Assembly: GCA_965233585.1 (NCBI GenBank)
Contig: CBDDTI010000747.1
Span: forward strand, 416,001 to 480,000
Origin: a bacterium
GTDB lineage: Bacteria; SAR324; NAC60-12
DNA length: 64,000 nt
Reading direction: 5' to 3'
Of the stretch, positions 8,397-55,215 are shown one piece after another (the stretch's first letter is position 1; each line of letters begins with the position of its first letter). The notes below the pieces were generated by a model, which had not been told where the DNA came from, did no database searches, and was given only the letters and a program-made list of their open reading frames with translations. Position numbers and translations under genes: made by a program.

Positions 8397-8740
8397 TCCA
8401 TTTTTTCAATGACAATTTTAGAACCAGTTGTTTTGATTTTAATAGGATCATTAATATCCCAACCTAATTGAGTAAAAAATTGTTGTGGAATGACAATTTT
8501 TTTAGAGACCCCTCCACGACCTGATGCCTGAATGTAAGTTTCACGCTCTTTAGCCTTGGAACCTGACAGACGAGAACTAAAAACAGGAATGGACAGACCA
8601 AGCATTGATGATGCTTTGATAAGTCTTGAGTTAAACGTTGCTAAATTCATTTTTAAATGACTAGCCGTTGCGTTAAGAGTTAAACTTTTAGAAAGAGTTT
8701 TAACTTGTGCAAAAAATTGCTTTGCTTCTTCTACATTCAT
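8381..8740 (-). CDS. Small protein with C-terminal AbrB/MazE-like swapped-hairpin domain
   Basis: KIVIPQQFFTQLGWDINDPIKIKTTGSKIVIEK; start overlaps the lnt stop. Confidence 0.55.
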   Translation of the reverse strand: MNVEEAKQFFAQVKTLSKSLTLNATASHLKMNLATFNSRLIKASSMLGLSIPVFSSRLSGSKAKERETYIQASGRGGVSKKIVIPQQFFTQLGWDINDPIKIKTTGSKIVIEKMDQKEE

Positions 8741-10419
8741 AGCATTGATCCTTTTCTATGTGGGTTAAAATTAAAATGCAAAATTCTATCTTTCCATAAA
8801 AACAATGTCAATACCATACATATAAAAAATAAAAAATATCCCAAGCTGTTTTTAAATTCTCTATAAAATGAGAATCGTTTGCTTAGTTTGACTGTATGTG
8901 TGAAAGCCCCTTCTTGAAATAAACCTAAGACTCTCCCCTCTACTTTTCCTAATAAATTCACAAACTTGGTCTCCCCATTATTTGAGGCATATAGAAATGG
9001 GACACGTGTTTCAATGGCATTCCAGCGAATCATATTTTCTAACATATCAGAGGCGTTGGTTCTTCCAAACCATGCAAGGTTACTCAGATTCACTATGAAT
9101 TGAGTCCCGTTTTGAACCATCTGTCTTGGGATTTCAGGGTCAAACATATCAAAACAAATTGTTCCTGTCAGTTGAAGATTTTCTGAAATTTTAAAAACAG
9201 AATACTCTTGACCTGCTTCAAATTGACTCACTTGAGGAATCACTCTTTTCACAAAACGACCAAACCAAGGAGCAACATCGGCAAATGGAATGTATTCACC
9301 AAATGGGATTAAAAGAATTTTGTCATACTTTCCTATGACCTCTCCATCAGGATTGAGCAACAAGGACGAACTATAATACTTTCTTTCTCCTTCAATTAAA
9401 TCCCAACCTATTGTTGTCAGTAGCAAATAAACATTTGCATTTTGAACAAAAGACTTGACAATCTCCCGTGCCTTTTGGTTGTGAAAATAAGCAGATGAGA
9501 AGGTTGATTCAGGCCAGACGACAAGAGAAGGTACACTAGAGGAAGGTGACTTTTCTAACTCTTTGATAGAATCATCAATGAGTCCAGAAATATTATAGGC
9601 TCTTTTGGAAAATGTAAGGTCTGGGTTGGAGGCTAAGTTAGCAAGTGAAAAGTTAGGTTGTATCGTCACAACTTGTAAAGGTTGCCCCTGATTGAGTGTG
9701 GGTTTTAAATCAAATTCTCTCCAAAATCCATAAGAAAACGTCATCAAAAACATCAAAACGTAGATGCAAGTGAATTTTTTGAGCAAAGCAAATGGTTGTG
9801 TCAAATTGACTTGGGTAGAATTGCTTTGACACTCAAAAGAACGCCATAAACCTAAAAGTAAAAAATTTGAACCTATGACAAAGAATCCCAACCCTGTTGC
9901 CCCAATGAGGTCTGCCGCTTGCGATAAAAATGGAGTCTGCCTAAAGGTCATAGAACCAAAAGACCAGTGAAAAAATCTGGGGTATTGAGCATCAAAAAAT
10001 AATGCTAAAAAAATCCTAAATGGTAAATCTGCAACCAATGGTTGACGAATCAAAAAACAGGGGAGGACAAAGCAAACAAAAAGAATCCCGCCTAATTCCA
10101 AGCCGTATCCAAAACCATTGATTGCCAATGCAATCCAATAAGGGAGATGACCGAAGACCTCCAAACTATGTGCAATCCAAGGCGCACCAAGCACAGAAGC
10201 AACCGAAGCCGTCAACCAACAACAAAGCAAACTGGTTGCAACTTTTTTAAGGAAGGAATGCTGAAGAGCCTGTAAACGGTCTATCAGCACCAATAAGGGG
10301 AATAACCCAACAAGCCAAAGATATTGGTAGTACAGGTATTGAGTTGCAACTCCAAGCATCACTCCTGAAGTTGCAATGCACAGAAGCCAAGAGGCTGGGT
10401 TATTGAAGTGTTTGCCCAT
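8737..10419 (-). CDS. lnt: Apolipoprotein N-acyltransferase
   Basis: Multiple TM helices, QPN, VWPES, YDKILLIPFGEYIP, ICFD, NLAWFG. Confidence 0.92.
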   Translation of the reverse strand: MGKHFNNPASWLLCIATSGVMLGVATQYLYYQYLWLVGLFPLLVLIDRLQALQHSFLKKVATSLLCCWLTASVASVLGAPWIAHSLEVFGHLPYWIALAINGFGYGLELGGILFVCFVLPCFLIRQPLVADLPFRIFLALFFDAQYPRFFHWSFGSMTFRQTPFLSQAADLIGATGLGFFVIGSNFLLLGLWRSFECQSNSTQVNLTQPFALLKKFTCIYVLMFLMTFSYGFWREFDLKPTLNQGQPLQVVTIQPNFSLANLASNPDLTFSKRAYNISGLIDDSIKELEKSPSSSVPSLVVWPESTFSSAYFHNQKAREIVKSFVQNANVYLLLTTIGWDLIEGERKYYSSSLLLNPDGEVIGKYDKILLIPFGEYIPFADVAPWFGRFVKRVIPQVSQFEAGQEYSVFKISENLQLTGTICFDMFDPEIPRQMVQNGTQFIVNLSNLAWFGRTNASDMLENMIRWNAIETRVPFLYASNNGETKFVNLLGKVEGRVLGLFQEGAFTHTVKLSKRFSFYREFKNSLGYFLFFICMVLTLFLWKDRILHFNFNPHRKGSML

Positions 10420-11413
10420 GACTTCTGAGGTCTCGGCAAGCTTGGACAACACGTTCTTTCATACTTGCCTCTGCTTTTTTGAGATAAGATCGCGGGTCAT
10501 AAGTCTTTTTATTGCCAACCTCATGATCCACTTTCAACACTCCGTCATAGTTTTTCATCACGTGATCTACAATCGGTCTTGTATAAGCATATTGCGTGTC
10601 TGTGTCTATGTTCATCTTGATGACACCGTAATCTAAGGTTGCATGAATATCAGAAAGATCCGACCCTGAACCCCCATGAAACACAAGGTACATGGTGTCA
10701 TTATACTTACTAAAAACCGCATCTTGACCATCTTTCAACACTTGGGGTCTTAACTTCACATTCCCGGGCTTATACACCCCATGCACATTGCCAAAAGTTG
10801 CTGCCAACATGAACTTTCCACGTTTGTTCAGCGACTCATAAACTGCCAACATCTCCTCTGTTGTTGTATAAAGTTGCTCATTGGCTACTCCAGAGTTATC
10901 GTGTCCGTCTTCTTCCCCGCCAACGACACCTGCTTCTACTTCAAGAATGATTTCACTTTTTGCACAACGTTCCAAAAGTTTTTCTGCAATTTCAAGGTTT
11001 TCTTTTAATGGCACAGTTGAGCCATCAAACATGTGTGAATTAAACAGATTTGGCAGTCCTTTCGCACGCCTTCTTTCTGTCTCTTCTACAAGTGGTTCAA
11101 GATATGTTGCAAGTTTCTCCTTCACACAATGGTCTGTATGCAACGCAATGTTAACATCAAAATCTTGTGCAATGAACCTTGTATATTCTGCAAGAGCGAT
11201 TGCACCTTTGACCATACTTTTGACTGAACCTGAAGCGAACTCTGCTCCACCCGTAGAAACCTGAATGATTCCATCGCTTTGACTTTCTGCTAACCCAGCC
11301 AAAACAGCATTGACTGTGGACATTGATGTGATATTAAATGCAGGGTATGCAAAATGGTTGTCTCTTGCATGTTCTAGCATCTGGCAATATTTGTCATAAT
11401 CAACAACTGGCAT
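10400..11413 (-). CDS. fbaA: Class II fructose-bisphosphate aldolase
   Basis: LHTDHC, SHMFDGS, GGEEDG, FGNVHGVY, FHGGSG, KMNIDTD. Confidence 0.95.
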   Translation of the reverse strand: MPVVDYDKYCQMLEHARDNHFAYPAFNITSMSTVNAVLAGLAESQSDGIIQVSTGGAEFASGSVKSMVKGAIALAEYTRFIAQDFDVNIALHTDHCVKEKLATYLEPLVEETERRRAKGLPNLFNSHMFDGSTVPLKENLEIAEKLLERCAKSEIILEVEAGVVGGEEDGHDNSGVANEQLYTTTEEMLAVYESLNKRGKFMLAATFGNVHGVYKPGNVKLRPQVLKDGQDAVFSKYNDTMYLVFHGGSGSDLSDIHATLDYGVIKMNIDTDTQYAYTRPIVDHVMKNYDGVLKVDHEVGNKKTYDPRSYLKKAEASMKERVVQACRDLRSHGQTLQ

Positions 11414-13836: not shown

Positions 13837-15375
13837 ATGATTCATTCAAAGGACTCTTCTGATTTTTTAGAAGTTTTACAAATACAAGACCAAAACTACG
13901 GTGTGGCAATAGGTGGCAAAGAGTGGCTCAAAAATACAAACGTCAATAATTTGTCATCTTTCAATCCGACTGACAACACTGTGATTGCCAAAGTGTATGA
14001 GGGCAACCGAGCTGATTATCATACTGTCATTGAACATGCTCATCAGGCGTTTGGCACTTGGAGAATGCTTCCTGCCCCAAAAAGAGGCGAAGTCGTGCGT
14101 GCCATTGGTGAAAAGCTGAGGCAGTATAAAAAAGAGTTAGGTGCATTGGTCAGTTTGGAAATGGGTAAGATTCTGCAAGAAGGTGAGGGAGAAGTCCAAG
14201 AGATGATAGACATTGCAGATTTTGCAGTGGGATTGTCAAGGCAACTTTACGGCAAGACAATGCACTCTGAAAGAGAACAGCACCGAATGTATGAGCAATA
14301 TCACCCTTTGGGAATTGTGGGTGTGATTTCTGCCTTTAACTTTCCCGTGGCAGTCTGGTCTTGGAATGCTTTGATTGCCGCAGTTTGTGGAAATGTAGTG
14401 GTCTGGAAGCCCTCCCTTAAAACTCCTTTGTGTGCTGTGGCTGTTCAACATATTTGCGACGAAGTGTTGAAAGATTTTGGACTTACTGGCATTTTTAATC
14501 TGGTCATTGGTTCAGACCAAGACGTTGGAGAGGCACTGACAGAAGACCACCGTGTGCCATTAATTTCTGCAACAGGTTCTACTAGAATGGGACAGCATGT
14601 TGCAACCAAAGTGGCAGCAAGATTGGGCAAGACTATTTTGGAGCTAGGTGGCAACAATGGCATCATCTTAGACAAAGATGCTGACTTCAGCCTTGCCATT
14701 CCAGCCATTGTCTTTGGAGCGGTTGGCACTGCTGGGCAACGATGCACCACCACCAGAAGACTCTTTGTGCATCATAGTCAGTATGAAGAAGTTTTGATGC
14801 AGCTAAAGAATGCCTATGCACAAATCGCAATAGGCAATCCTCTGGAGGGGGCTTTGTTGGGACCTTTGATTGATCAGGCAGCAGTGAACGATTATGAAAA
14901 CGCTATCGCATTAGCCAAGTCACAAGGTGGAGAAGTCGTTTACGGAGGTTCAGCCTTGCACCATCAGGCAGGGAATTTTGTTGAGCCAACTCTCATCAAA
15001 GCAAAATCTTCTTTTGATATTGTCAAAACTGAAACGTTTGCACCCATTTTATACGTGATGAGCTACGAGCATTTGGACGAAGCAATCCAAATGCACAATG
15101 ACGTCCCGCAAGGACTTTCTTCAGCAATCTTTACTAACAATCTCATCAGTGCAGAAACCTTTTTGTCTCATCAAGGCAGTGATTGTGGCATTGCAAACGT
15201 CAACATTGGCACATCAGGGGCAGAAATCGGGGGGGCTTTTGGTGGAGAAAAAGAGACAGGAGGAGGCAGAGAGGCAGGTTCTGATGCGTGGAAGGCTTAC
15301 ATGAGACGCCAAACAAACACCATCAACTGGGGTGCAAAACTTCCTTTAGCTCAAGGAATTAAATTTGAAATCTAA
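13837..15375 (+). CDS. ALDH7-family aldehyde dehydrogenase (piperideine-6-carboxylate/aminoadipate-semialdehyde dehydrogenase-like)
   Basis: [41 protein letters not shown]. Confidence 0.92.
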
Positions 15376-15398
15376 TTTCTTTGAGTAGGCAACCCAAG

Positions 15399-16361
15399 AT
15401 GCTGACAACCAAGCTGACAACTGCTTTCGGTCTCAAATATCCTGTCATTTCAGCACCAATGGCAGTTGCCTCAACTGCCAATTTGGCTTGTGCTGTATCA
15501 GATGCAGGGGGATTAGGTTGCATTGGTGGTGGCTTTGGTGATTTGGATTGGATACGAAGCCAATTTTCTCAATGCAATGTCAGTCATTTGGGCTGTGGTT
15601 TGATCACTTGGGCATTAGATGAAAAACCAGAAGTTTTAGATGTGGTGTTAGATGCCAACCCCAAAGCTGTCTTCTTGTCGTTTGGCAATCCTGACAAATA
15701 TACGCAAAAAGTCAAAGACCGAGGCATCACTCTCATTTGTCAAATCCAAACTCTCAAAGATGCCAAACATGCCCTAGATTGTGGTGCTGATGTTCTTGTG
15801 GCACAAGGAGCTGAAGCTGGGGGGCATGGGCAAGAACGTTCTACTTTCACTCTAGTCCCAGAAGTTGCTGACCTCATCATTAGAAGTGGTTCTAACTCAT
15901 TACTTTGTGCCGCAGGTGGTATTGCTGACGGTAGAGGTTTAGCCGCCACTTTGATGTTGGGTGCTGATGGCGTCGTCGTGGGGTCAAGATTTTGGGCATG
16001 TCAAGAAGCCGCAGTACATCAAAACATGCTGCATGCCGCAACCCAAGCCACAGGTGATGACACCATCAGAAGTTGTGTCATGGACATTGCCAGACAACTT
16101 GGCTGGCCCAGACGTTACACCGCAAGAGTTCTAAAAAATCAGTTCATCAAACGTTGGCACGGCAAAGAGGAGAGTTTAGCCCAAGTTTGGCAAGAAGAGT
16201 CCCCCAAATGGAAAGAGGCTTGGCAAGCTGGTGATGTAGAAAAAAGCAATACTTTTGTTGGCGAATCTGTGGGATTAATCAACAGCATTGAAACCGCTGA
16301 ATCTGTCATGCAAAACATGGTTACACAGGCAAGATCGTTACTCCAAAAAACGTGGGCATAA
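15399..16361 (+). CDS. Nitronate monooxygenase family flavoprotein
   Basis: SAPMA, QGAEAGGHG, AAGGIADGRG, GSRF. Confidence 0.88.
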   Translation: MLTTKLTTAFGLKYPVISAPMAVASTANLACAVSDAGGLGCIGGGFGDLDWIRSQFSQCNVSHLGCGLITWALDEKPEVLDVVLDANPKAVFLSFGNPDKYTQKVKDRGITLICQIQTLKDAKHALDCGADVLVAQGAEAGGHGQERSTFTLVPEVADLIIRSGSNSLLCAAGGIADGRGLAATLMLGADGVVVGSRFWACQEAAVHQNMLHAATQATGDDTIRSCVMDIARQLGWPRRYTARVLKNQFIKRWHGKEESLAQVWQEESPKWKEAWQAGDVEKSNTFVGESVGLINSIETAESVMQNMVTQARSLLQKTWA

Positions 16362-16678
16362 TCCACCAACGACTAAAACATCTTCCTCCTTCCTCAAACT
16401 TCTAAACACTCATCACTCAAACTACCCCAAGCCATTTATTTTGAGCAAATTCAATCCGCTTACGACCAAATGCCTCAAAAAATGGCATGAATCACACAAT
16501 GACATGTTGGCAATGAACTTAAAAGTCTTGTCCATTCTGATTCATTGATGATGAAAAGCCAATCACGAAAAAAAACAATTTTAAAAGTTGCATTTGTTTT
16601 CCAAGGTCTGCTAGAATCCTTAACTCTCTTTTATTTCTTTTTTTTCATTCTGATTTAACCATGATTTAGGAGTTTCTT

Positions 16679-17916
16679 ATGCTAGAACAAATCAAATCCA
16701 TTCAAAACTTGCTGTCAGGGGGGGGGCTTTTTATGACAAGATAATCGTTTTCTTGACACTTCTGGTCTTAGCAGGTTGCACACCTCCTGCTGAAGAAAAT
16801 AAGGAGGGAGAGACGAAGAAGGGTGAAGCTACGTGCGAGGTCAACTCAAACAGTTCTGTCTCAACAGGTCAAGAATTGGTTGCCAATTTCACTTGCACTA
16901 CCACATCAATTTATCAAGGCAAAAAATTAAACATCACTTACGATGAAAGTTTGACTTCCTTGAAGCTGGTCGTCTCAGGTGAAGAAACAACGGGGCAAAG
17001 TGGAAAACTCACCTACACCTTACCTAAACAAGAAGAATTTCAAGCCAAACTGAAGTTAACAGGAGTCACAACAGGCAAGGGACAACTCAAGTTTAAGATT
17101 TTGAGCAAAAAATCAAACTGGGATTTTACAGTGGTACAAGGGGGACCAAAAGCATTGACGTTGGGTGCAGCGGTTGCGTCAACTGCTTTTACCAAGATGC
17201 AAGACACATCAGGCAAAGCCTATGGACGTTCAGTGATGAGGTTAGACACTTCTCAAACTTTAGTTTCCAATGACGAGGAACATTGCGAAGATGCTCCTTT
17301 GAATGCCTTGCTTGTCTCATCAGATAGCTTTGTCAATTGTGAGAAAGTGCATGTTCAGAAAGGCAACAACACCAATCATGTCATCATTCCCAAACAAACT
17401 TGGGACTTGAACAAAACCTACAAAGTAGCAGTCAAGACAGCTGGCGGTGCTTCTGCATTCAATCGCTCTGGCAATCCTGTCTCCTTCACCACTAATAATG
17501 CCAACCACAACACAGCGGCTCACATCACAGGCTTTGATGTTGGGTCAAGACCTAAGGTGCTAAACAATCAATTCCACTTAGAAAAAGATGGAGAACTCTG
17601 GTATTACATCAGTAAAGGTGAGACAGTACCAAGATATGATGCCAGTGAATGTCGGACAATCAACTACAAGGCAACAGATAACAAACAATTCAAAAACCTT
17701 ACTGGCATCAATCAAGCTGATAGAGTGTTTGCTAGGACTATTTTAGATGGTAACACTAGCCACTATCTTGTTACTGGAACTAGTACTCGCACCAATGTCT
17801 ATCCACTCCGTGCATCAAGAGACGGTAATGCTGGTCAACAGAATCTTAGAGTAGGGGCTAGATTTGCTGATATTTACTATTACTTGTGTTTTGTGAAGAC
17901 TCCAGAACGTTCTTAA
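16679..17916 (+). pseudogene. Variable lipoprotein paralog 1, out of frame at G9 tract 16718-16726 (putative phase OFF)
   Basis: AGGAG RBS and ATG 16679 match paralogs; G7 or G10 would join the leader to LVLAGC lipobox and body. Confidence 0.8.
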
Positions 17917-17939
17917 ACGTTTTCGTTGCTTCTTCCTTT

Positions 17940-18250
17940 TTGTCACTGCGGGCTTGACCCGCAATCTCTTCTTTTCTCAATCTTCCCTTTTTCTTTTCTT
18001 TGTTGTGGGCTTGTTTTTTTGTCATTCCTGCGGAAGCAGGAATCTATCCTTTAACTGCTGATGGATTCCGTGTCAGGCAACGAATGACTGATGAAGTTTG
18101 CAGTCTTGCATTTGGTCATTCCTGCCTCTTTTTTGTCATTCCTGCGAAGGCTCCGAATCCAGTCATGTAGGAATCCATGCTTGGTTTGGTGATAGATTCC
18201 GTGTCAGGCTGACTAATTTGACGTCATTGCTCACCTTGTTCCGCAATCTT
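17940..18250. repeat. Cluster of REP-like palindromes
   Basis: GTCAcTGCGGGCTTGACCCGCAATCTC, GTCATTCCTGCGGAAGCAGGAATC, GATTCCGTGTCAGGCAACGAATGAC. Confidence 0.85.
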
Positions 18251-18422
18251 AAACTTTCATTTTTTCAAAAGCTGACTTGCTTGTTTCTTTGACTTTTTGC
18301 TCAAACCACTAAAAATAATCAAAATTCATCATTTTAAAAGTTGCATTTGTTTTGAATAGTTTGCTAGAATCGTTATCTTGTTTTTGTTCTTTTTCTTTTC
18401 AACCATTATTTAGGAGATTTTT

Positions 18423-19652
18423 ATGTTAGAACAACTCAAGTCCGTTCAGACCCTTTTTGTCAGGGGGGGGGCTTTTTATGACAAATCAATCATTTTCTTG
18501 ACACTTCTGGTCTTGGCAAGTTGCACACCGCCCAATGAAGAAAATGAGGAGGACGCCACACAGAATCAAGCCACTTGCGAGGTCTCCTCTGGCAATTCTT
18601 TGGAAACAGGTCAAGAATTGGTCGCAAACCTCACATGTAACGTATCAGAGACCCATCAAGGCGAAAAATTAAACATCACTTACGATGCAAGTTTGACGTC
18701 TTTGAAGCTGATTGTTGGAGAAAAAGAAACAGTCGGGCAAAGCGGGAAACTCACCCACACCTTACCTAAACAAGAAAAATTTCAAGCCAAGCTAAAGCTC
18801 ACAGGAGTCACAGCAGGCAAAGGGCAAATCCAATTCAAAATCTTGAGTCAAGAATCAAACTGGGGTTTTACAGTAGTTAGTGGAGTGAAGCCATTTTTAA
18901 GCGGGGTTGTTACAGCGTCAGTTTTTACTAAGATGCAAGACACATCAGGCAAAGCTTATGGACGTTCAGTGATGCGATTAGATACTTCTGAAACCCTCCT
19001 TTCCAATGACGAGACAGTTTGCAAAGATGCCCCTTTGAATGCACTGCTTGTCTCATCAGATGACTTTGTCACTTGTGAGAAAGTGCATGTTCAGAAAGGC
19101 AACAACACCAATCATGTCATCATTCCCAAACAAACTTGGGGCTTAAACGAAACTTACAAAGTTGCAGTGAGAACAGCAAGTGGTGCTTCTGCCTTCAATC
19201 GTTCTGGCAATGCCGTTTCCTTCACTACCAACAATGCCAATCACAACACGGCAGCTCACATTACCAGATTTGATGTGGCTTCGTTCTCTAAAGTAGATGG
19301 AAATAGCTTCCACTTGGAAAAAGATGGAGAACTCTGGTATTTCATCAACAAAGGACTCACTGCGCCAAGGTATGATGCCAGTGAATGTCAGGCAATCAAC
19401 TACAAGGCGACAGATGACAAACAATTTAAACATCTTGCTGGCAGAAGCAGGACTGACAAAGTGTTTGTCAGAACTATTTTAGATCAAAGTATTAATTACA
19501 TTGTTTCTGGTTCTAGTACTGGAGTTAATGCCCATTCACTCCTTGCACGTTTAGACGGTTTCAATGTTGCCCCCAATCATTCTCCAGTGGGACAGTCAAA
19601 AACTGGGGGACTCTATTATCTTTGTTCTGTGAAGATTCCAGAACGTTCCTAA
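18423..19652 (+). CDS. Variable lipoprotein paralog 2, in frame through G9 tract 18463-18471
   Basis: LVLASC lipobox; colinear with paralogs 1, 3, 5. Confidence 0.88.
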   Translation: MLEQLKSVQTLFVRGGAFYDKSIIFLTLLVLASCTPPNEENEEDATQNQATCEVSSGNSLETGQELVANLTCNVSETHQGEKLNITYDASLTSLKLIVGEKETVGQSGKLTHTLPKQEKFQAKLKLTGVTAGKGQIQFKILSQESNWGFTVVSGVKPFLSGVVTASVFTKMQDTSGKAYGRSVMRLDTSETLLSNDETVCKDAPLNALLVSSDDFVTCEKVHVQKGNNTNHVIIPKQTWGLNETYKVAVRTASGASAFNRSGNAVSFTTNNANHNTAAHITRFDVASFSKVDGNSFHLEKDGELWYFINKGLTAPRYDASECQAINYKATDDKQFKHLAGRSRTDKVFVRTILDQSINYIVSGSSTGVNAHSLLARLDGFNVAPNHSPVGQSKTGGLYYLCSVKIPERS

Positions 19653-19698
19653 ACGTTTTCGTTTCTTTTTTTCCTTCCTACCTTCTCATTTGTTTAAG

Positions 19699-19722
19699 TA
19701 AAGGGGGCGTCCGCTCCCTTTT
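19699..19722 (+). terminator. Terminator-like hairpin, repeated after paralog 3 (about 22244-22271) and paralog 5 (about 26074-26101)
   Basis: AAAGGGGGC-gtcc-GCTCCCTTTT. Confidence 0.55.
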
Positions 19723-19739
19723 CGTGACCTGCTGGCTTG

Positions 19740-20075
19740 CCTTTCAGCCATTGCTGACCTTGCCACCCTCAATCTCTCTTTTGTTTTTGAGATTCCGTGT
19801 CAGGCACTCAAGTGACGGGAGGATTTTGCTCACTTTGAAAACTGTCATTGTGGGCTTGACCCGCAATCTCAAGAACGTTCTTAATCGCTTTCGTTGTTTT
19901 TCAGATTCCGTGTCAGGCACGGAATGACTAAGACAAGCACCAAATGACAACTATTGTCATTCCTGCGAAAGCTCCGAATCCAGTCATGTAGGAATCTGTG
20001 CTTGGTTTGGTGATAGATTCCGTGTCAGGTTGACTAATTTGACGTCATTGCTCACCTTGTTCCGCAATCTGACTC
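19740..20075. repeat. Cluster of REP-like palindromes
   Basis: Several GTCATTG..TGACCCGCAATCTC and GATTCCGTGTCAGGCACGGAATGAC units. Confidence 0.85.
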
Positions 20076-20152
20076 TTGTTTAGAGATTGCTTTTAGAAAG
20101 ATTATCGTGCCATAATCTTTTCTTTTCGTTCAGGGTTTTCAGATTTCGGGCA

Positions 20153-20566
20153 ATGCAAGCACCACACGGATTTTACAAAAAGCTAGTTTCCAACGGCTTT
20201 ACAAGAGAACAAGCAGAAGGACTCACAGAAGCACATACCGAATTTTTTGAAGAAGTCTTGGAACGAGAGACCAAACTCATCAAAGTAGATTTTAAAAGTG
20301 AGCTTGCCACCAAGGAAGATGTCCAGAATGTCAAAGATGAACTGAAAGATGTCAGAGATGAACTGAAAGAAGACATTCAAAATGTCAGAGATGAACTGAA
20401 AGAAGACATTCAAAATGTCAGAGATGAGCTGAAAGAAGACATCTATTTTTTAAAAGGAGACCAGAAACTCCTTAAATGGATGGTTGCTTTTGGCATTTCT
20501 TTAAATCTAATCACACTTGGGGTGCTATTAGCCTTTTTGTTCTCTTTTCTCCCTCCTGCCAAATAA
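20153..20566 (+). CDS. DUF1640/CCDC90-like coiled-coil membrane-anchored protein with 33-bp tandem repeats
   Basis: LVSNGFTREQAE, LATKED, repeated DELKEDIQNVR, C-terminal TM helix. Confidence 0.7.
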   Translation: MQAPHGFYKKLVSNGFTREQAEGLTEAHTEFFEEVLERETKLIKVDFKSELATKEDVQNVKDELKDVRDELKEDIQNVRDELKEDIQNVRDELKEDIYFLKGDQKLLKWMVAFGISLNLITLGVLLAFLFSFLPPAK

Positions 20567-20599
20567 AACCCTGTCTTTTTTAGTAACGCTTGTTTTTTT

Positions 20600-20775
20600 G
20601 AAATTCCGTATCAAACACTCAAGTGACTGATGACGTTTGCAGATTTGTTTTTTGTCATTGCGGGACTTGACCCGCAATCTCAATCCTATTTTTGCGATTC
20701 CATGTCAAGCACGGAATGACGTGAGGAATTTGCTCATCTTGAGGACTGTCATTGCGGGCTTGACCCGCAATCTCA
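20600..20775. repeat. Cluster of REP-like palindromes
   Basis: GTCATTGCGGG(A)CTTGACCCGCAATCTC x2, GATTCCATGTCAAGCACGGAATGAC. Confidence 0.85.
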
Positions 20776-20961
20776 AACTTCCATCTTCAAAAAAAACTTA
20801 TTTTCAAAAGCTGACCTGCTTGTTTCTTTGACTTTTCGCTCAAACCATTAAAAATAATTAAAAAAGATGATTTTAAAAGTTGCATTTGTTTTGAATGGTC
20901 TGCTAGAATCGTAACCTTGTTTTTGTTCGTTCTCATTTAACATTTATCAAAGGAGTTTTTT

Positions 20962-22188
20962 ATGTTAGAACAAATCAAATCCATTCAAACCCTTTTTGTC
21001 AGGGGGGGGGCTTTTTATGACAAATCAATCGTTTTCTTGACAATGCTTGTCTTGGCAGGTTGTGTTCCGCCAGGGGAAGAGGAGAAAGAAGATGGACTTG
21101 CCAGCAACATCAAGTGCGAGGTGGACTCTACCGAATCCGTTACAACAGGTGAGGAACTGGTTGCCAACGTCACATGCAACACACCAGAACTTGCTCAAGG
21201 CAGAAAATTACAGGTCATTTACGATGAAAGTTTGACTTCTTTGAAGCTAGTCGTGGCAGAAGAAGAAACAATCGGGGAAGATGGAAAGTTGACTTACACT
21301 TTACCTAATCAAGAACAATTCCAAGCCAAACTGAAGTTAACAGGAGTTGCAGAAGGAGAAGGACAAGTCAAGTTCAAAATCTTGAGTCAAAAATCAAACT
21401 GGGCATTCACAGTGGTCAGAGGAGGACCAAGGGCATTGACTTTAGGTGCAGATGTCGCGGCATCTGTCTTTACCAAGATGCAAGATTCATCAGGCAAAGC
21501 CTATGGACGTTCCGTGATGAGATTAGACACTTCTGAAACCCTTGTTTCCAATGACGAAGTACATTGTGAGAATGCTCCTTTGAATGCACTGCTTGTCTCG
21601 TCAGATGACTTTGCAAATTGTGAGAAGGTCTATGTTCAAAAAGGCGCTAACACCAATTATGTCATCATTCCCAAGCAAACTTGGGCGTTAAACAAAACTT
21701 ACAAAGTGGCAATCAAAACGGCAAACGGAGGCTCTGCTTTCAATCGTTCTGGCAACCCTGTTTCCTTCTCCACGAACGATGCTAATCACAAAACCACTGC
21801 ACACGTCACCAGATTTGATGCTGGGGCAAGACCTAAAGTGCTAGACAATCAATTCCATTTGGAAAAAGATGGAGACCTTTGGTATTACATCAGCAAAGGC
21901 GACACATTGCCCCAATATAATCCCACTGAATGCCAAGAGATCAACTATCAAAATGCAGATGACGTCAAATTTACAAATCTTGCTAGCATTGATGATTCTG
22001 CCAAAGAATTGGCTAGATCTCTTAATCGCAGAACCAGAAGGTATATCGCTGATGCTGCTGGAAATAACCGAGTTAAGGTATTTGTTACCACCCTATCATC
22101 TAAGAAAACTTTTTTCCATACGGTAGGCAAACATCCTTTTCATATATTTATTTATTTTTGTTCTGTTCAGATTCCAGAACGTACCTAA
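20962..22188 (+). CDS. Variable lipoprotein paralog 3, in frame through G9 tract 21002-21010
   Basis: LVLAGC lipobox; colinear with the other paralogs. Confidence 0.88.
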   Translation: MLEQIKSIQTLFVRGGAFYDKSIVFLTMLVLAGCVPPGEEEKEDGLASNIKCEVDSTESVTTGEELVANVTCNTPELAQGRKLQVIYDESLTSLKLVVAEEETIGEDGKLTYTLPNQEQFQAKLKLTGVAEGEGQVKFKILSQKSNWAFTVVRGGPRALTLGADVAASVFTKMQDSSGKAYGRSVMRLDTSETLVSNDEVHCENAPLNALLVSSDDFANCEKVYVQKGANTNYVIIPKQTWALNKTYKVAIKTANGGSAFNRSGNPVSFSTNDANHKTTAHVTRFDAGARPKVLDNQFHLEKDGDLWYYISKGDTLPQYNPTECQEINYQNADDVKFTNLASIDDSAKELARSLNRRTRRYIADAAGNNRVKVFVTTLSSKKTFFHTVGKHPFHIFIYFCSVQIPERT

Positions 22189-22199
22189 ACGTTTTCTTC

Positions 22200-22935
22200 T
22201 CGTCATTGCGGGCTTGACCTGCAATCTCAAACTTTCTCATTTTAAAAAAAGGGGGCGTCCTGCTCCCTTTTTCTTACCTTTGTTTTTCATTTTCGTCTTC
22301 TTAGCAAGCGGGGTAGTCAGAGAAATAGAACGGAGTCATTCGGAGCGAAAGCAGAAATCCATGCTTGGTTTGGTAATAGATTCCGTGTCAGGCACGGAAT
22401 GACTGGGAGAATTGAAACACCCCGACCTGCGGACTTTGCTTTCTCATTCCTCTCATTCCTTTGTTATTGCCCACCTTGTCTGCATCTCTACACAACCGTC
22501 ATTGCGGGCTTGACCCGCAATCTCCATACAACCGTCATTGCGGACTTGATCCGCAATCTCACTCTTGTTTTTTGAGATTCCGTGTCAGGCACGGAATGAC
22601 TGGGAGAATTGAAACACCCCGACCTGCGGACTTTGCTTTCTCATTCCTCTCATTCCTTTGTTATTGCCCACCTTGTCTGCATCTCTACACAACCGTCATT
22701 GCGGGCTTGACCCGCAATCTCTCCCCACTTTCTTTCTTCTTTTGTTTTCTCTCTGCTCTACTCTCACTCTTGTTTTTTTGAGATTCCTCACCAAGTGTAG
22801 CATGACTGCTACTGTCATTCGGAGCGAAAGCTCTGAATCCAGTCATGTAGGATTCTGTGCTTGGGTTTAAGATAGATTCCGTGTCAAGCACGGAATGACG
22901 GGAGGATTTTGCTCACCTTGACCCGCAATCTCAAA
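22200..22935. repeat. Large REP-like cluster with an about 145-bp direct duplication (offset 197 bp)
   Basis: About 22380-22524 recurs at 22577-22721; many REP units. Confidence 0.88.
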
Positions 22936-23065
22936 ATTCCTCGCTATTTTAAGCAAGCGAATCAAAATTCATCATTTTAAAAGTTGATTTTGTTTTTGAA
23001 AATTTGCTAAAATCATCATCTTGTTTTTTGTTCATTCTCACTTAACCATTATTTAGGAGGTTTTT

Positions 23066-24406
23066 ATGTTAGGACAAATCAAATCAATTCAAAACTCTCT
23101 TGCTAGGAGAGGTTTTTTTTATGACGGAATAATTGTTTTCTTGACACTTCTTGCTTTAGCGGGTTGCACACCTCCTGCTGAAGAAAATGAAGAAGGAAAT
23201 GAAGCCTCCAATGACGTCAAGTGCAAGGTCACCTCTGGCAATTCTTTGGAAACAGGTCAAGAATTGGTTGCCAACCTCACCTGCACCGCATCAACAATTT
23301 ATCAAGGTAAAAAGTTAAACATCACTTACGATGAAAGTTTAGCTTCTTTGAAGCTGGTCGTTGGAGAAAAAGAAACAGTTGGACAAAGTGGAAAGTTGTC
23401 TTACATTTTACCTAGAAAAAAAGAATTTCAAGCCAAGCTGAAGTTGACAGGAGTGACAGCAGGCAAAGGTCAACTGCAATTCAAAATCTTGAGAAAAAAA
23501 TCAAACTGGGCTTTTACAGTGGTCAATGGCAACGGACTTGACATTAACAACGGAGCTGACGTTTCCAAATACACTTGGAAGCGGGTCGCTTCTTCAGCAG
23601 GGTGGTCTGCTCGTAATGTTCACACAAGCGTCGTGTTCAATAACAAAATCTGGGTACTAGGAGGAATTGATTTTGGCAGAAAAAACGATGTCTGGAGTTC
23701 TTCTGATGGCAAGAATTGGACAGAAGAAACTTCTTCAGCAGGTTGGTCTGCTAGGAATTCCCACACAAGCGTCGTGTTCAATAACAAAATCTGGGTGCTA
23801 GGAGGAATTGATTCTGGCTGGAAAAACGATGTCTGGAGTTCTTCTGATGGCAAGAATTGGACTCAAAGCACAGCTTCAGCAGGTTGGTCTGCTCGTGCTT
23901 TGCACACAAGCGTTGTGTTCAATAACAAAATCTGGGTGCTGGGAGGTTTTACTGGTGGCAATAAAAACGATGTCTGGAGTTCTTCTGACGGCATTAATTG
24001 GACAGAAGACACTTCTTCGGCAGGTTGGGATGCCCGTTATGATCACGCAAGCGTCGTGTTCAATAACAAAATCTGGGTGCTAGGAGGCTCTGGTAAAAAC
24101 GATGTCTGGAGTTCTTCTGACGGCATTAATTGGACTCAAAGTACAGCTTCAGCAGATTGGTCTACTCGTGATTCTCACACAAGTGTCGTGTTCAATAACA
24201 AAATCTGGGTGCTAGGGGGATTTGATGGCGTCAGGAAAAACGATGTCTGGAGTTCTTCTGACGGCAGTAATTGGACAGAAGATACTTCTTCAGCAGGTTG
24301 GGATGTTCGTGCTGGACATAAAAGCGTTGTGTTCAACAACAAAATCTGGGTGCTAGGAGGTAGAAGCACTGCGAAAAGAAACGATGTTTGGGCAGCTGGT
24401 CCCTAA
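23066..24406 (+). CDS. Variable lipoprotein paralog 4: shared N-terminal domain plus six Kelch-like repeats
   Basis: LALAGC; first ~150 aa homologous to paralogs; 6x HTSVVFNNKIWVLGG..KNDVW, mostly 141-bp period. Confidence 0.88.
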   Translation: MLGQIKSIQNSLARRGFFYDGIIVFLTLLALAGCTPPAEENEEGNEASNDVKCKVTSGNSLETGQELVANLTCTASTIYQGKKLNITYDESLASLKLVVGEKETVGQSGKLSYILPRKKEFQAKLKLTGVTAGKGQLQFKILRKKSNWAFTVVNGNGLDINNGADVSKYTWKRVASSAGWSARNVHTSVVFNNKIWVLGGIDFGRKNDVWSSSDGKNWTEETSSAGWSARNSHTSVVFNNKIWVLGGIDSGWKNDVWSSSDGKNWTQSTASAGWSARALHTSVVFNNKIWVLGGFTGGNKNDVWSSSDGINWTEDTSSAGWDARYDHASVVFNNKIWVLGGSGKNDVWSSSDGINWTQSTASADWSTRDSHTSVVFNNKIWVLGGFDGVRKNDVWSSSDGSNWTEDTSSAGWDVRAGHKSVVFNNKIWVLGGRSTAKRNDVWAAGP

Positions 24407-24524
24407 ATTTCACTACCTGTCAATTCGTCTTCTCTTAAAACCACCTTGCTTGAATGATCAAGCGGGGGTGTTTCTTCTTACGCAAAACCAAACCTTCCTT
24501 TTCATCACTTGCTGTCTTGTTTTT

Positions 24525-24665
24525 TGGTCATTCGGAGCGAAAGCAGGAATCCAATCATGTAGGAATCTGTGCTTGGTTTAAGATAGATTCCGTGTCAAGC
24601 ACGGAATGACCAAACACAACCCAGCAAAATTCTCCCGTCATTGCGGGCTTGACCCGCAATCTCAA
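24525..24665. repeat. Cluster of REP-like palindromes
   Basis: GATTCCGTGTCAAGCACGGAATGAC and CGTCATTGCGGGCTTGACCCGCAATCTC. Confidence 0.85.
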
Positions 24666-24850
24666 ACTTCCATCTTCCAAAAAACCGTTATTTCAAAAGG
24701 AACACTTGCTTGCTTCTTTGATTTTTTGCTCAAGTCATTAAAAATAATTAAAAAATGATTTTAAAAGTTGCATTTGTCTTTCAAGGTGCTAAAATCGTAA
24801 CCTTCTTTTTTGTTCGTTCTCATTTAACCAAATCATTTAGGAGTTTTTTT

Positions 24851-26033
24851 ATGTTAGAACAAATCAAATCCATTCAAAACCTCTTGTCAGGGGGGGGCTT
24901 TTTATGACAAAGTAATCCTTTTCTTGACACTTCTGGTCTTGGCAGGTTGCACACCGCCTGCTGAAGAAAACGAGGGGGAAGCCACCCAAAATCAAGCCAC
25001 TTGCGAGGTCACCTCTGGCAGTTCTTTGGCAACGGGTCAAGAATTGGTTGCAGACTTAACATGCGCTGTATCAAACATTTATCAAGGCAAACGGTTAAGC
25101 ATCGCTTACGATGAAAGTTTGACGTCTTTGAAGCTGGTTGTGTCAGGGGACAAAGCAGTCGGACAGATTGGAACGTTAAACTACAAATTACCTAGAAAAA
25201 AAGAGTTTCAAGCCAAGCTGAAGTTGACAGGAGTCGCAGCAGGCAAGGGACAACTCAAGTTCAAAATCTTGAGAAAAAAATCAAATTGGGATTTTACAGT
25301 AGTCGCTGCTGACAATGCTTTGACCAAGATGCAAGACTCATCAGGCAAAGCTTACGGACGTTCGGTGTTGAGATTAGATACTTCTCAAACATTAGTTTCT
25401 AATGATGAGACAGTTTGCAGAAATGCACCTTTGAATGCACTGCTTGTGTCGTCAGATAATTTCACAACTTGTGAAAAAGTGTATGTTCAAAAAGGCGACA
25501 ACACCAATCATGTCATTATTCCCAAACAGACTTGGGGCTTAAACAAAACTTACAAACTGGCAGTCAAAACGGCAAGCGGAGCTTTTGCACTCAATCGTTC
25601 TGGCAATCCTGTCTCCTTTAACACAAACAATGCCAATCACAACACTGTGGCTCACGTCACCAAGTTTGATGCTGGTTCAATACCTCAAGTGCTAAACAAT
25701 CACTTCCATTTGGAAAAAGACGGAGAACTCTGGTATTACATCAACAAAGGAACAAACGCACCAAGGTATGACGCCAGTGAATGTCGGTCTATCAACTACA
25801 AGGCAACAGATGATAAACAATTTAAAAACCTTAGTGGACTCAATCAAGCTGACAGAGAGCTAGCCAAAACTATTTTAAACCGCAATAGTTACTATATTGC
25901 TTCTGTTACTGGAGGTGGAAATACTCGTTTGTATAGACTCTCAACAACCATAGGCACTAACTCCAATGTGGGAGGTCCATTGGCTTCTAATCTTTACTAT
26001 CTTTGTTTTGTGAAGATTCCAGAACGTGCTTAA
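24851..26033 (+). pseudogene. Variable lipoprotein paralog 5, out of frame at G8 tract 24890-24897 (putative phase OFF)
   Basis: AGGAG RBS and ATG 24851; reads ...SGGGFL-TGA; G7 or G10 restores the LVLAGC lipobox frame. Confidence 0.8.
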
Positions 26034-26099
26034 ACGTTTTCGTTTCTTTTTCCTTCCTACCTCTCATTTGTTTAAAAAAAGGGGGCGTTCTGCTCCCTT

Positions 26100-26680
26100 T
26101 TCGTCACCTGCGTCATTGCTCACCTTGACCCGCAATCTCTCTTTTTCTCATTCCTCACTTTCTTACCTGTGGGCTTGTTTTTTGGTCATTGCTCACCTTG
26201 ACCCGCAATCTCTCCTTTTCCCAAACAACTCTTGTTTTTGAGATTCCGTGTCAAGCACGGAATGACGGTTTGCTCTTTTTCCTATTCCCTCGTCATTGCT
26301 CACTTTAAAAAACCGCCATTGCGGGCTTGAGTGAGCAATCTCATTCTTCTTAAAACACAGGACAAACACTCGGGTTTGTCCCTACTTTGTCATTTCGTGC
26401 TTGACACGGAATCTCTCTTTTGTTTTTTGAGATTCCGCATCAAGTGTGGAATGACAGGAGGGGTTGTAGGCTTTGTTTTTCTCTCTACTTTGCCTTTTCC
26501 CAAACCCTCCTTATCCTGTGCTTTCTTGAGGAGTGGTAAAAAATGAGCGATGGCTTGACTTCGTCTAGATCATGGTTCACCTTGAAAGCCGTCATTGCTC
26601 ACCTTGACCCGCAATCTCCTCTTTTTCATTGTGTTTGCATTCTTCTTTTTGAGATTCTTTGTCAAGCACTCAAGTGAAGT
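26100..26680. repeat. Cluster of REP-like palindromes
   Basis: GTCATTGCTCACCTTGACCCGCAATCTC x3, GATTCCGTGTCAAGCACGGAATGAC, GATTCCGCATCAAGTGTGGAATGAC. Confidence 0.85.
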
Positions 26681-26787
26681 GAGGAGTTGGCTGGGTTGTT
26701 TTTTTTCTGCTTTGTTCTCCCTTTTTCTCAAAAATCTGCTAGGCTAGGTGTATTTAAACCTATAAATTTAGATTTTAGGAGAACAAG

Positions 26788-27513
26788 ATGAGTGAACAAT
26801 TTGATGAGATTTGGGCAATTTTAAAAGAAAACGCAAAAGGCATGCAGGAGTTGAAAGAACGACAAGAAGAAAATGCCAAGCGACAAGAAGAAAATAGCAG
26901 GCAGTTGGCAGAACTGACAAAGAAGCAAGAAAAAACAGACAAGCAGCAAGAAGAAAATAGCAAGCAGCAAGAAGAAAACAGCAAGCAGTTGGCAGAACTG
27001 ACTTTGCAACTTCAAGAACTCAAACCAGCAGTTGCCAGCATGGTGCGGGGCATTCAGAAGATGGAAAACTTCATCAGCAATACTTCGGAGATTTTAGAAA
27101 GTCGTCTGTGCCGTTCTGTGGAACAGGTTATAGAAAAAAATGGTTTCATTGAAATCGGTGGCATTCGCTACGACGAAGTGGAACAAAACCTCAAAGGGAA
27201 AAATGGTATCACGGCTCAATATGACCTTGTGCTGTTCAGCAAAACAAAGCATCTGCTTTTGATAGAAGTCAAACGTAAGCCACATGTTAAGGATTTCCAA
27301 CAAGTGCTTCGGCAAAAAGAGACCTTTCCTAAATTGTTTCCGGGGTATCAAGATTATGAGATCCATTGCGGGTTAGCAGGAGAAGTCTTTTATGACGAAC
27401 TCATCAGTGAGGCAGAAGAAGAAGGGATTTATCTTTTTCAAGAACAGGCAGGAGAATTACAGGTCATCTCGTCTGCGTCGTTGCAGTTAGAATTGGAGGC
27501 AATGGAACACTGA
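26788..27513 (+). CDS. Coiled-coil heptad-repeat protein with C-terminal PD-(D/E)XK nuclease-like domain, copy 1
   Basis: QEENSKQ repeats; QYDLV...LLIEVK motif; AGGAG RBS. Confidence 0.72.
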   Translation: MSEQFDEIWAILKENAKGMQELKERQEENAKRQEENSRQLAELTKKQEKTDKQQEENSKQQEENSKQLAELTLQLQELKPAVASMVRGIQKMENFISNTSEILESRLCRSVEQVIEKNGFIEIGGIRYDEVEQNLKGKNGITAQYDLVLFSKTKHLLLIEVKRKPHVKDFQQVLRQKETFPKLFPGYQDYEIHCGLAGEVFYDELISEAEEEGIYLFQEQAGELQVISSASLQLELEAMEH

Positions 27514-27530
27514 ACACTGGTTTTCTTTTT

Positions 27531-28290
27531 GGTATTGTTAAACTATAAGTGATATGCGATATTAAGTTCATTTAATTGAATTGATAGTCATGGTGTAGCA
27601 ATGAAGTTGTGTCCTAGATGTGAAAGTGAGAAGACGGTTAAGAATGGTTTTTTATATGGTAAACCGAGGAGGCGTTGCAATGCCTGCAGCTATCAATATA
27701 CCAAGTCCTATCGTGGTCAAATCTCACCACAGATCAAAAGAAGAGCATTAGAGTTGTATTTGGAGGGTCTTGGTTTCAGGTCAATCGGTCGTTTGCTGAA
27801 TTGTTCTCATGTTTCAGTTTATAATTGGGTCTGTAGTTTTGGCGAACAGCTCAAGGCATTAAGAAAGGACACAGACATTGAAATTATGGAAATTGATGAA
27901 ATGCACACCTACATCCAGTCAAAAAAAACTACTGCTGGCTCTGGATTGCTGTTGATAGACGTGGGAAGCAATTTATCAATTGTGTGCTTGGAAACAGAGA
28001 CTCAAAAGCCTGTAGGCATTTATGGGACAAGGTCAAGGAAACAAAACCTCTTCAGGTGATGACTGATCACTGCAAGGCTTACAAACAAGTCATTCCCAAA
28101 GAAATTCATACATGTTCCAAGACAGAAACATACACGGTAGAAGGGTATAATTCTCTCTTGAGACATTTCTTGGCAAGAATGAGAAGGAAAACCAAATGTT
28201 ACAGCAAGTCTCTTAAAGCATTACAATATTCTGTTCTTTTGTTCATGGCAAAACGGAATAATCAACTATCACTTATTATTTAACAATGCC
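27531..28290 (+). mobile_element. IS1-family element (760 bp), no target duplication
   Basis: TIRs GGTATTGTTAAACTATAAGTGATA / TATCACTTATTATTTAACAATGCC (21/24 match); zinc ribbon + HTH ORF and DDE ORF in -1 frame. Confidence 0.92.
27601..28283 (+). CDS. IS1-family transposase InsAB via -1 frameshift at A8C (27921-27929)
   Basis: CPRC..KNG..RRRCNAC, EIDEMHTY, TDHCKAY, TYTVEGYNSLLRHFLAR. Confidence 0.88.
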
Positions 28291-55098: not shown

Positions 55099-55215
55099 TA
55101 TCCTAAGATTAGTCTTGTGTTTTTTTGTACCTGTGCTAGACTGCAAGAGAATGTAGAGAGGGGAATGTGCACAAACATCTTTTGCTTCTTTAAATTTTTA
55201 ATTCAAAACAACACA

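Follow-up and report, generated by a model that had tools for sequence, protein, structure and literature searches.

Why would long lipoprotein reading frames be cut off from their own start codons by a run of guanines? The question is raised by an array of five lipoprotein paralogs on contig CBDDTI010000747.1 (C747) of assembly GCA_965233585.1, assigned to the SAR324 lineage NAC60-12. Four of the copies carry a tract of eight or nine G residues (G8 or G9) in the signal-peptide coding region, and in two of these the start codon and the body of the gene lie in different frames. The window, meaning the whole 64,000-nucleotide (nt) stretch that was analysed, is C747:416001-480000 and belongs to a 1.07-Mb contig of a 12.0-Mb, 747-contig bin. 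We think that the array is probably part of a modular surface-lipoprotein family under translational slipped-strand phase variation, and give this reading a probability of roughly 0.6.

Reading of the sequence from 16300 to 26400 together with the open reading frame (ORF) listing placed the five paralog starts at ATG 16679, 18423, 20962, 23066 and 24851. This confirmed every item of the preliminary description that concerned the layout of the array, namely the five paralogs, their coordinates, the G9, G8 and T8 tracts and the frame states. The features of the array, with copies termed ON when tract and body are in frame and OFF when they are not, are:

16588..16617, + strand: promoter-like block of copy 1 (TTGCAT, 18-nt spacer, TGC-TAGAAT, extended -10 type; not flagged by the consensus scan)
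16679..17916, + strand: copy 1 gene, OFF (AGGAG at 16668-16672, ATG at 16679)
16718..16726, + strand: G9 tract of copy 1 (read-through would need G10 or G7)
18341..18370, + strand: promoter-like block of copy 2, from sequence reading, conserved among paralogs
18423..19652, + strand: copy 2 gene, ON (409 amino acids, beginning MLEQLKSVQTLFVRGGAFYDKSIIFLTLLVLASC)
18463..18471, + strand: G9 tract of copy 2, in frame, coding for the end of an Arg codon and Gly-Gly
20880..20909, + strand: promoter-like block of copy 3, from sequence reading, conserved among paralogs
20962..22188, + strand: copy 3 gene, ON (408 amino acids)
21002..21010, + strand: G9 tract of copy 3, in frame (in the twin, C746:50591, the equally long G6TGG is locked ON)
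22984..23013, + strand: promoter-like block of copy 4 (TTGATT, 18 nt, TAAAAT, with TG before the second hexamer; the sole block of the five flagged by the scan)
23066..24406, + strand: copy 4 gene, in frame (446 amino acids; common leader and N-domain, six-blade Kelch C-terminal half)
23113..23120, + strand: T8 at the place of the G tract in copy 4 (..AGG AGA GGT TTT TTT TAT..)
24768..24795, + strand: promoter-like block of copy 5 (16-nt spacer)
24851..26033, + strand: copy 5 gene, OFF (leader frame ends at TGA 24905-24907; body in frame +1)
24890..24897, + strand: G8 tract of copy 5 (read-through would need G7 or G10)

All five copies have their own promoter-like block, AGTTG(C/A)(A/T)T..TGCTA(G/A)AAT, about 60-70 nt upstream and an AGGAG 6-8 nt before the ATG, as first described. 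The distance from ATG to tract is 39 nt in copies 1 and 5 compared with 40 nt in copies 2 and 3. In copy 1 the leader frame terminates at a TAA (16742-16744), and the body continues in frame +2 for 387 codons (16753-17916) free of stops, with the lipobox Cys codon at 16777-16779. The body of copy 5 (24924-26033) is likewise open over 369 codons, so that the earlier claim of out-of-frame copies with open bodies held for both.

The mechanical ORF list gave copies 1 and 5 a TTG start, which would leave just MTLLVLAGC as the signal. By eye, no Shine-Dalgarno sequence precedes the TTG, and the segment from the tract to the conserved n-region Lys contains no start codon. Since nine residues cannot constitute a signal peptide and relatives carry a Lys-containing n-region further upstream, the TTG starts are ORF-calling artefacts that mask the layout, in line with the preliminary description. 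One external relative, P0011 (46-49% identity), has the leader MEIAMKKITSKLLLKSITLGSIMALFAC. Another, P0019 (42% identity to the type of the sister pair introduced below), starts MLQESNQRKLTFMRKFSALGLMILVGC and has a long homologous leader that aligns with MLEQIKSIQTLFVRGGAFYDK; it is devoid of the G codons and reads R-K where the family has R-G-G. A start upstream of the tract is thus supported both by AGGAG plus ATG and by relatives, which places the tract inside the precursor coding region. The features of a lipoprotein signal (a positively charged n-region, a hydrophobic core and a lipobox of the form L-(A/S)-(G/A)-C) were read by eye as ..R..DK-SIVFLTMLV-LAGC in the ON copies and in the body frames of the OFF copies. 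Because gene callers truncate OFF copies to TTG or other internal starts, the family and its ON/OFF states are invisible in annotation; public protein sets hold the OFF copies as MTLLVLAGC.., MAGC.. and similar.

How far the family extends depends on which part of the bin belongs to the bacterium. The repetitive extragenic palindrome (REP)-like motif GACCCGCAATCT, present between genes of the window, was counted 225 times in the five largest contigs, 4 times in C723 and 0 times in the other 741 contigs. Long ORFs cover 0.83-0.89 of the large contigs compared with 0.31 in 80 sampled small contigs, and tandem core-histone clusters occur on the small contigs C7, C488 and C731. Taken together, REP distribution, ORF density and histones indicate a chimeric bin with ∼2.9-3.0 Mb of bacterial DNA (the five large contigs and C723) and ∼9 Mb of eukaryotic DNA (∼740 small contigs), a chimerism hidden by the CheckM-type figures of 92.5% completeness and 2.1% contamination. 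IlvD encoded in the window shares no more than 73% identity with proteins from Methylococcales, proteobacterial and Verrucomicrobia metagenome-assembled genomes, too little to refine the placement of the bacterium. Family and tract counts are restricted to the large bacterial contigs. Bin-wide there are 562 poly-G/C runs of at least 8 bases, up to 31 bases in length, and the long ones belong to the small contigs.

A search of the genome for further paralogs, which had been proposed beforehand as a check, greatly enlarged the family. A six-frame search with copy 2 gave 42 matches, and a search with the leader motif (first 27 nt, at most 6 mismatches) gave 20 hits, 18 real and two spurious ones on small contigs. 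The 18 leader-bearing paralogs are arranged in several clusters on four contigs, 10 with type-A bodies like those of copies 1, 2, 3 and 5 and 8 with Kelch-type bodies (one truncated), and a sister pair with a different leader adds two loci. The five-member family originally described is therefore right for the window and an understatement for the genome. All 18 share the leader MLEQIKSIQ..VRGGAFYDK..LAGC, and the elements AGTTG, TGCTA.AAT, AGGAG and the post-tract CTTTTTATGAC are common to 18/18. AGGAG with ATG is given as invariant in 18/18, and C746:288736 is listed with ATA for ATG. There are also 14 more distant paralogs (N-domain identity ∼30%). These, too, are lipoproteins; their signal peptides are short, of the ordinary kind, and carry no G tract.

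An uninterrupted G7-G9 tract occurs at the same codons, 39-40 nt after the ATG and before the lipobox, in 11 of the 18 family loci and in one sister locus. Four of the 11 are ON, namely copies 2 and 3, C747:990624 and C747:987182, all with G9 after 40 nt. The remaining seven are OFF: copy 1 (G9), copy 5 (G8), C746:321993 (G8), C746:325691 (G9), C746:328176 (G7 then T), C747:406675 (G8) and C747:517914 (G8). Where the tract is interrupted or absent, five copies are in frame (C729:79654, C746:50591 with G6TGG, copy 4, C747:993898 and C747:984995). C746:288736, the copy with ATA, also has no uninterrupted tract and is in frame, and it is truncated. C745:43705 (G5TGT6) is out of frame despite an interrupted tract. 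In the sister pair, C746:702316 (G6TGG) is in frame and C745:319790 (G9) is out of frame. With this pair included, uninterrupted tracts are in frame at four loci and out of frame at eight, in both -1 and -2 states, and seven of the eight loci with an interrupted or absent tract are in frame. The length differences that accompany a change of frame (lengths 7, 8 and 9) lie between paralogs, not alleles. Locked variants hold the ON length, as in the G6TGG of C746:50591 and C746:702316.

Copies devoid of a tract read AGG AGA AGG, AGA AGA AAC or GGG CGT GGT at this place, so the origin of the tract probably lies in purine-rich Arg/Gly codons. Nowhere does the 5′ cassette vary more than in the ∼12 nt that immediately precede the G tract (window 16706-16717), where identity is ∼0.71-0.73; it is 0.93 to the 5′ side of these bases and 0.87-0.92 to the 3′ side, across the tract. 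The patch varies in length by 1 nt among copies, giving 39 or 40 nt from the ATG, and its divergence could stem from micro-conversion or local mutability.

Could all copies truly be in frame, with the out-of-frame states being mistakes in homopolymer length made in the assembly? Several sequencing platforms are prone to error in G8-G9 runs. We compared the leader tracts with other tracts of the same contigs. The five large bacterial contigs contain 30 G/C runs of at least 8, where our own arithmetic predicts ∼12 from base composition, and the leader position holds 11 of the 30. G/C8-9 tracts inside other long ORFs were in frame in 14/14 cases, with at least 69 open codons on each side, and in 12/12 cases under a stricter rule; the genes concerned, named from reading their translations, include lpxA-like, ribosomal protein L4-like (rplD-like) and sucA-like genes. 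Out-of-frame states were thus found at 8/12 uninterrupted family tracts versus 0/14 controls (Fisher's exact test; P = 3.2e-4) and versus 1/8 interrupted or absent tracts (Fisher's exact test; P = 0.028); these tests overstate independence because the paralogs are related. Among A/T8 tracts, 202 were in frame inside ORFs and 60 runs appeared to split an ORF, most with the geometry of the frameshift site in IS1 transposases. Outside this geometry we examined 16 further apparent splits at A/T or G/C tracts: 13 were gene junctions, two were ambiguous and one was a C14 run.

The 14 in-frame control tracts make a general homopolymer error unlikely, and the A/T8 tracts and gene junctions tell the same way. 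Assembly error would moreover have to differ in size and sign from locus to locus (+1, +2 or -1), with three OFF copies needing +2 or -1. We regard it as very improbable. Read-level data were sought in low-depth assembled contigs (Logan; four runs from one study and two samples, none of them RNA; depth ∼2-10 per contig). Here, paralogs cross-mapped heavily and there were no usable rows at 16718, 18463 or 24890. The sole indel rows near a tract (20988, 20997 and 21002; runs X2 and X4) fit the cross-mapped paralog C745:43705.

If the frame states are real, the DNA might still be fixed, with RNA-polymerase slippage or ribosomal frameshifting rescuing the out-of-frame copies at a constant low level, so that the tract would set a dose instead of a heritable switch. 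Homopolymer runs of about nine support transcriptional slippage in bacteria, and the OFF copies are conserved. Slippage on G/C runs is, however, generally weaker than on A/T runs, there is no conserved stimulatory structure 3′ of the tract, locked in-frame variants exist, and the presence of both -1 and -2 states means that no single programmed shift fits. A constant dose set in this way seems improbable to us, with leaky rescue by transcriptional slippage possible. Programmed ribosomal frameshifting was considered as the main mechanism and rejected: OFF copies sit in both alternative frames and would need shifts in both directions, so it is not the designed route.

The leader RNA offers a different regulated element, in which a hairpin and U-tract, built from the pyrimidine run, the G run and the T5-8 behind it, would act as attenuator or terminator, with the frame being incidental. 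In the terminator scan, hits fall on the leaders of copies 2, 3, 4 and 5, a hairpin beside a U-run can be folded in 16 of the 18 leaders (-0.9 to -9.8 kcal/mol), and two tract-less copies form Watson-Crick stems with z-scores of about -2.4 to -2.5. Against this, RNAalifold on the 17 distinct leaders gave 3 pairs at -0.51 kcal/mol with one compensatory change, and the median z-score was about -1; pyrimidine and purine runs also pair readily by chance. We hold an attenuator to be extremely unlikely. An Rfam scan of 15000-28000 returned nothing relevant.

Under phase variation, each gene would be a separate transcription unit with an extended -10 type promoter-like block, a ∼60-nt 5′ untranslated region (UTR), AGGAG and ATG. 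The predicted precursor has an unusually long n-region (MLEQIKSIQ..VRGGAFYDK), a hydrophobic core and a lipobox L-A-G/S-C, and the n-region codons AGG GGG GGG make up the G9 run. Slipped-strand mispairing during replication would add or remove a G. In the OFF state the ribosome would meet a stop 3-7 codons past the tract, and in the ON state it would read through into the lipoprotein. Independent and reversible switching of each paralog would lead a population to display different subsets of modular surface lipoproteins, composed of an acidic linker, an Ig-like N-domain and then one of two modules, a Kelch propeller or a Cys-rich C-domain that includes a hypervariable segment; this would amount to the combinatorial switchboard previously envisaged. 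Segmental gene conversion among paralogs may add sequence diversity. The preliminary description had proposed slipped-strand phase variation, which we find partly supported: the gene anatomy, comparative frame states, controls and selection signatures all bear on its side; the switching itself we infer. Also in its favour are further repeats near the 5′ ends of lipoprotein genes in this genome, the tract-less signal peptides of distant paralogs and external relatives, and the established poly-G switches of Neisseria.

OFF bodies are open for 332-428 codons. Pairwise ratios of nonsynonymous to synonymous substitution (dN/dS) among the 10 full-length type-A bodies were 0.20-0.41 (0.20-0.32 for out-of-frame copies), at dS of 0.3-1.1, with means of 0.27 for OFF-OFF (15 pairs), 0.32 for ON-OFF (24 pairs) and 0.35 for ON-ON (6 pairs). 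These values argue against long-standing pseudogenes. The paralogs are also strongly mosaic, with 100%-identical segments common to paralogs on different contigs, which indicates gene conversion. For example, copy 1 matches C746:321993 base for base between the promoter block and roughly codon 180 of the body, apart from three single-nucleotide differences, the 12 nt immediately 5′ of the tract and G9 versus G8, the 12-nt patch being the sole divergent patch in ∼640 near-identical bases. Further downstream, C746:321993 is identical to copy 2 over one window.

This mosaicism opens the way to another explanation, in which the out-of-frame copies are fixed pseudogenes, decaying or silent, that do not switch reversibly and are refreshed by conversion from expressed paralogs, serving at most as a sequence reservoir. 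Several observations speak for it and, equally, weigh against phase variation. Because paralogs exchange segments, conversion from live copies could mimic constraint in dead ones. C746:325691 has an additional TGA at the lipobox Cys codon, and C746:328176 has a tract interrupted at an OFF length (G7T), so some copies may be truly dead. C745:43705 (G5TGT6) is likewise out of frame with its tract interrupted. All six copies of the 39-nt class are OFF, none having the G7 or G10 needed for ON. MutS and MutL are both present and intact, and since G7-G9 is also short for fast switching, switching rates may be low or modest. Two further points weigh against phase variation alone: tract-length variation was seen among paralogs only, and the consensus promoter scan yielded 14 sites against 14.0 expected and flagged the copy 4 block only, the promoter call drawing on conservation.

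Other features of these loci count against fixed pseudogenes. Each OFF copy retains promoter block, AGGAG and ATG, unlike promoterless silent cassettes; at seven of the eight OFF loci the body, of ∼330-430 codons, is free of any further lesion; dN/dS is not raised among OFF copies (OFF-OFF 0.27 versus ON-ON 0.35); and frame loss is concentrated at uninterrupted tracts. We consider permanent silencing of the out-of-frame copies unlikely, though worth serious attention, and retain phase variation as the preferred reading.

After the lipobox, the predicted proteins have an acidic linker (PPAEENEE) followed by a domain of ∼100 residues. An AlphaFold2 model of a type-A protein, built on an 11-row alignment, had a mean predicted local distance difference test score (pLDDT) of 50.9, with a beta-sandwich only at about residues 50-152 (pLDDT ∼60-80). 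A Foldseek search of the PDB with it gave only generic Ig-like beta-sandwich matches (pilins, intimin etc.; ∼130 columns, template-modelling score ∼0.2). Three Cys pairs are conserved in the type-A C-domain, together with an invariant tail, YYLCxVKIPER, while one stretch is hypervariable (∼20% amino acid identity); this C-domain also terminates four giant lipoproteins of 1241-1751 residues. In Pfam, the type-A body (copies 1, 2, 3 and 5) matched no family at E ≤ 0.1 except for a sub-threshold fn3_PAP match, and in the ESM Atlas the type-A C-domain scored 0.79 at best, too low for a usable lead. Copy 4, in contrast, has a Kelch match above the gathering score (PF01344, 111.4 bits over six stretches, plus PF24681). 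Seven other leader-bearing loci were assigned to the Kelch type by length and by Pfam labels on four of them (P0012-P0015). Lipobox, disulfide pattern, Ig-like and Kelch modules and hypervariability suggest that these proteins may be exposed at the surface and act as binders there, the function put forward in the preliminary description.

Relatives are few. A profile search of 1.84 billion representative proteins found 20 at E ≤ 0.001, 11 of them encoded here and nine elsewhere, and 5.8 billion proteins searched through a word index contained 15 hits, one external (P0011) and the other 14 from this genome. All nine external relatives have ordinary short lipoprotein signal peptides and no tract. 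The family was found in none of 40 related genomes, and a scan of a genome-contig collection with copy 2 found no relative. A metagenome scan with a 21-nt leader motif gave eight matches, all unrelated by eye. External protein P0027 (297 amino acids, with N-domain, fn3 and Kelch parts) begins ..NVNWGGGGTLTL.. where a lipobox would be expected; a long G run at which the frame was called wrongly could account for this start.

A broader proposal can be made only tentatively, and we think it more apt to fail than to hold. Promoter block, 5′ UTR and translated G-run extension may together form a portable switch cassette of ∼200 nt, spread by gene conversion in front of both Cys-rich and Kelch bodies, in which the variable 12-nt patch would be a second frame-setter. 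Combined with the (CCGCAAT)n cassette described below, the phase-variable repertoire would then be almost wholly directed at lipoproteins, in an uncultured and probably eukaryote-associated bacterium with intact mismatch repair.

Known phase-variable systems share parts of this arrangement. Neisseria Opa proteins are encoded at up to 11-12 loci, each with an in-ORF repeat and independent ON/OFF control, and with recombination between loci (PMC5953494). The family here is like Opa in being a multi-copy surface protein family with its own repeat inside each ORF and recombination between loci, but Opa involves a pentamer and beta-barrel outer membrane proteins, compared with a homopolymer and lipoproteins here, and there is no sequence relationship. 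The Opa repeat (CTTCT/CTCTT) is located in the part of the gene that codes for the signal peptide. Opa switching has been demonstrated by experiment, whereas in the present case it is inferred from sequence.

Neisseria poly-G tracts within ORFs include pilC G(9-20), pglA G(9-21) and lgtA G(9-20) (PMC5953494), and hpuAB and hmbR are poly-G switches as well (PMC3786947). As in pilC, hpuA, hmbR, lgt and pgl, the poly-G run would set ON or OFF by frameshift from within the reading frame. The pilC tract lies in the signal-peptide region and HpuA is a lipoprotein. These Neisseria genes are single or paired, with tracts usually of at least 9, whereas the present family has 18 members with a shared switch cassette and tracts of 7-9; MutS and MutL are intact here, as in Neisseria.

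'Combinatorial lipoprotein phase variation in mycoplasmas' is an entry in PMC11868660 (Mycoplasma hyorhinis Vlp). Like Vlp, the family consists of surface lipoproteins with one homopolymer per gene and the potential for combinatorial surface mosaics. The Vlp homopolymer is a promoter poly-A tract exerting transcriptional control. Here, in contrast, the tract is predicted to be translated, and while the Vlp host is a wall-less Mollicute, this organism has Lnt (lnt gene at window 8737-10452), as expected of a diderm.

In Campylobacter and Helicobacter, many G/C homopolymers of at least 7 lie in the 5′ parts of surface-related genes (PMC6321876 and PMC8437040). The genome studied here differs in having MutS and MutL and in the concentration of its tracts mostly in one paralog family, compared with their spread over unrelated genes. 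Campylobacter and Helicobacter are not known to have MutS/MutL mismatch repair.

What is new here is the protein family, the lineage, the location of the tract in an N-terminal extension common to 18 paralogs of two architectures, and the co-occurrence of heptamer repeats in a second lipoprotein family. The literature on phase-variable lipoproteins and poly-G loci gave no named homologs; the family is nameless and so could not be found there by name. What is known of contingency loci comes mainly from a small number of pathogens in culture, whereas the present set comprises ∼20 candidate switches, nearly all in lipoprotein export signals, in an uncultured lineage binned with eukaryotic DNA. 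In any deep sequencing of the organism, population heterogeneity could be read cheaply from the tract lengths of the family.

The second class of repeat is (CCGCAAT)8-24 or (CCGCAAAT)10 directly after an ATG, followed by a conserved YRLNQLFQKSRQK.. and a lipoprotein signal peptide (..FVISAC). It occurs at C747:156519, C747:846356, C746:71141, C746:488283, C745:167236 and C295:101577, five of the six being out of frame from the nearest ATG, and its unit matches the core of the genome's REP-like element.

Homopolymers were also noted at three other places. At C746:776286-776294, a C9 run lies 13 codons past the lipobox Cys of an unrelated lipoprotein (MYQKRFKTLKVLAVSTAFSLGVAAC..), whose ORF from the ATG ends after 47 amino acids while a 295-codon body lies in another frame, making it a candidate OFF switch. 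A C14 run at C729:57424-57437 separates open frames of 185 and 159 codons. At C295:21866-21878, a C13 run just upstream of a 2240-codon frame is flanked by inverted TTTGTCATAAAAA / TTTTTATGACAAA, similar to the CTTTTTATGAC that is invariant among the lipoprotein leaders.

Within the window, a point beyond the preliminary description is that the array is broken at 20087-20566 by an unrelated coiled-coil membrane gene. This gene and the hairpins downstream of two copies, found with the terminator scan, are:

20087..20566, + strand: small coiled-coil gene, CCDC90-like, with a C-terminal membrane helix (PF07798, E = 6.6e-9)
22246..22272, + strand: terminator-like hairpin 3′ of copy 3
24444..24467, + strand: terminator-like hairpin 3′ of copy 4

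The CCDC90-like protein contains tandem DELKEDIQNVR repeats, and contig depth over its gene is above that of the flanks, which suggests a multi-copy element. The intergenic spaces (17920-18330, 19660-20080, 20570-20800, 22190-22960, 24410-24700 and 26040-26750) are dense in short palindromic units resembling REPs or miniature inverted-repeat transposable elements, e.g. GTCATTGCGGGCTTGACCCGCAATCTC and GATTCCGTGTCAGGCACGGAATGAC. An IS1-family element at window 27601-28283 has the usual A-run frameshift site (A8 at ∼27921), and there are ∼45 copies of the same geometry on the large contigs. Another large surface lipoprotein of the window, the 1170-amino-acid protein encoded at 53437-56949, matches the Leptospira LipL53-family SBBP beta-propeller lipoprotein model (NF047494, 429 bits).

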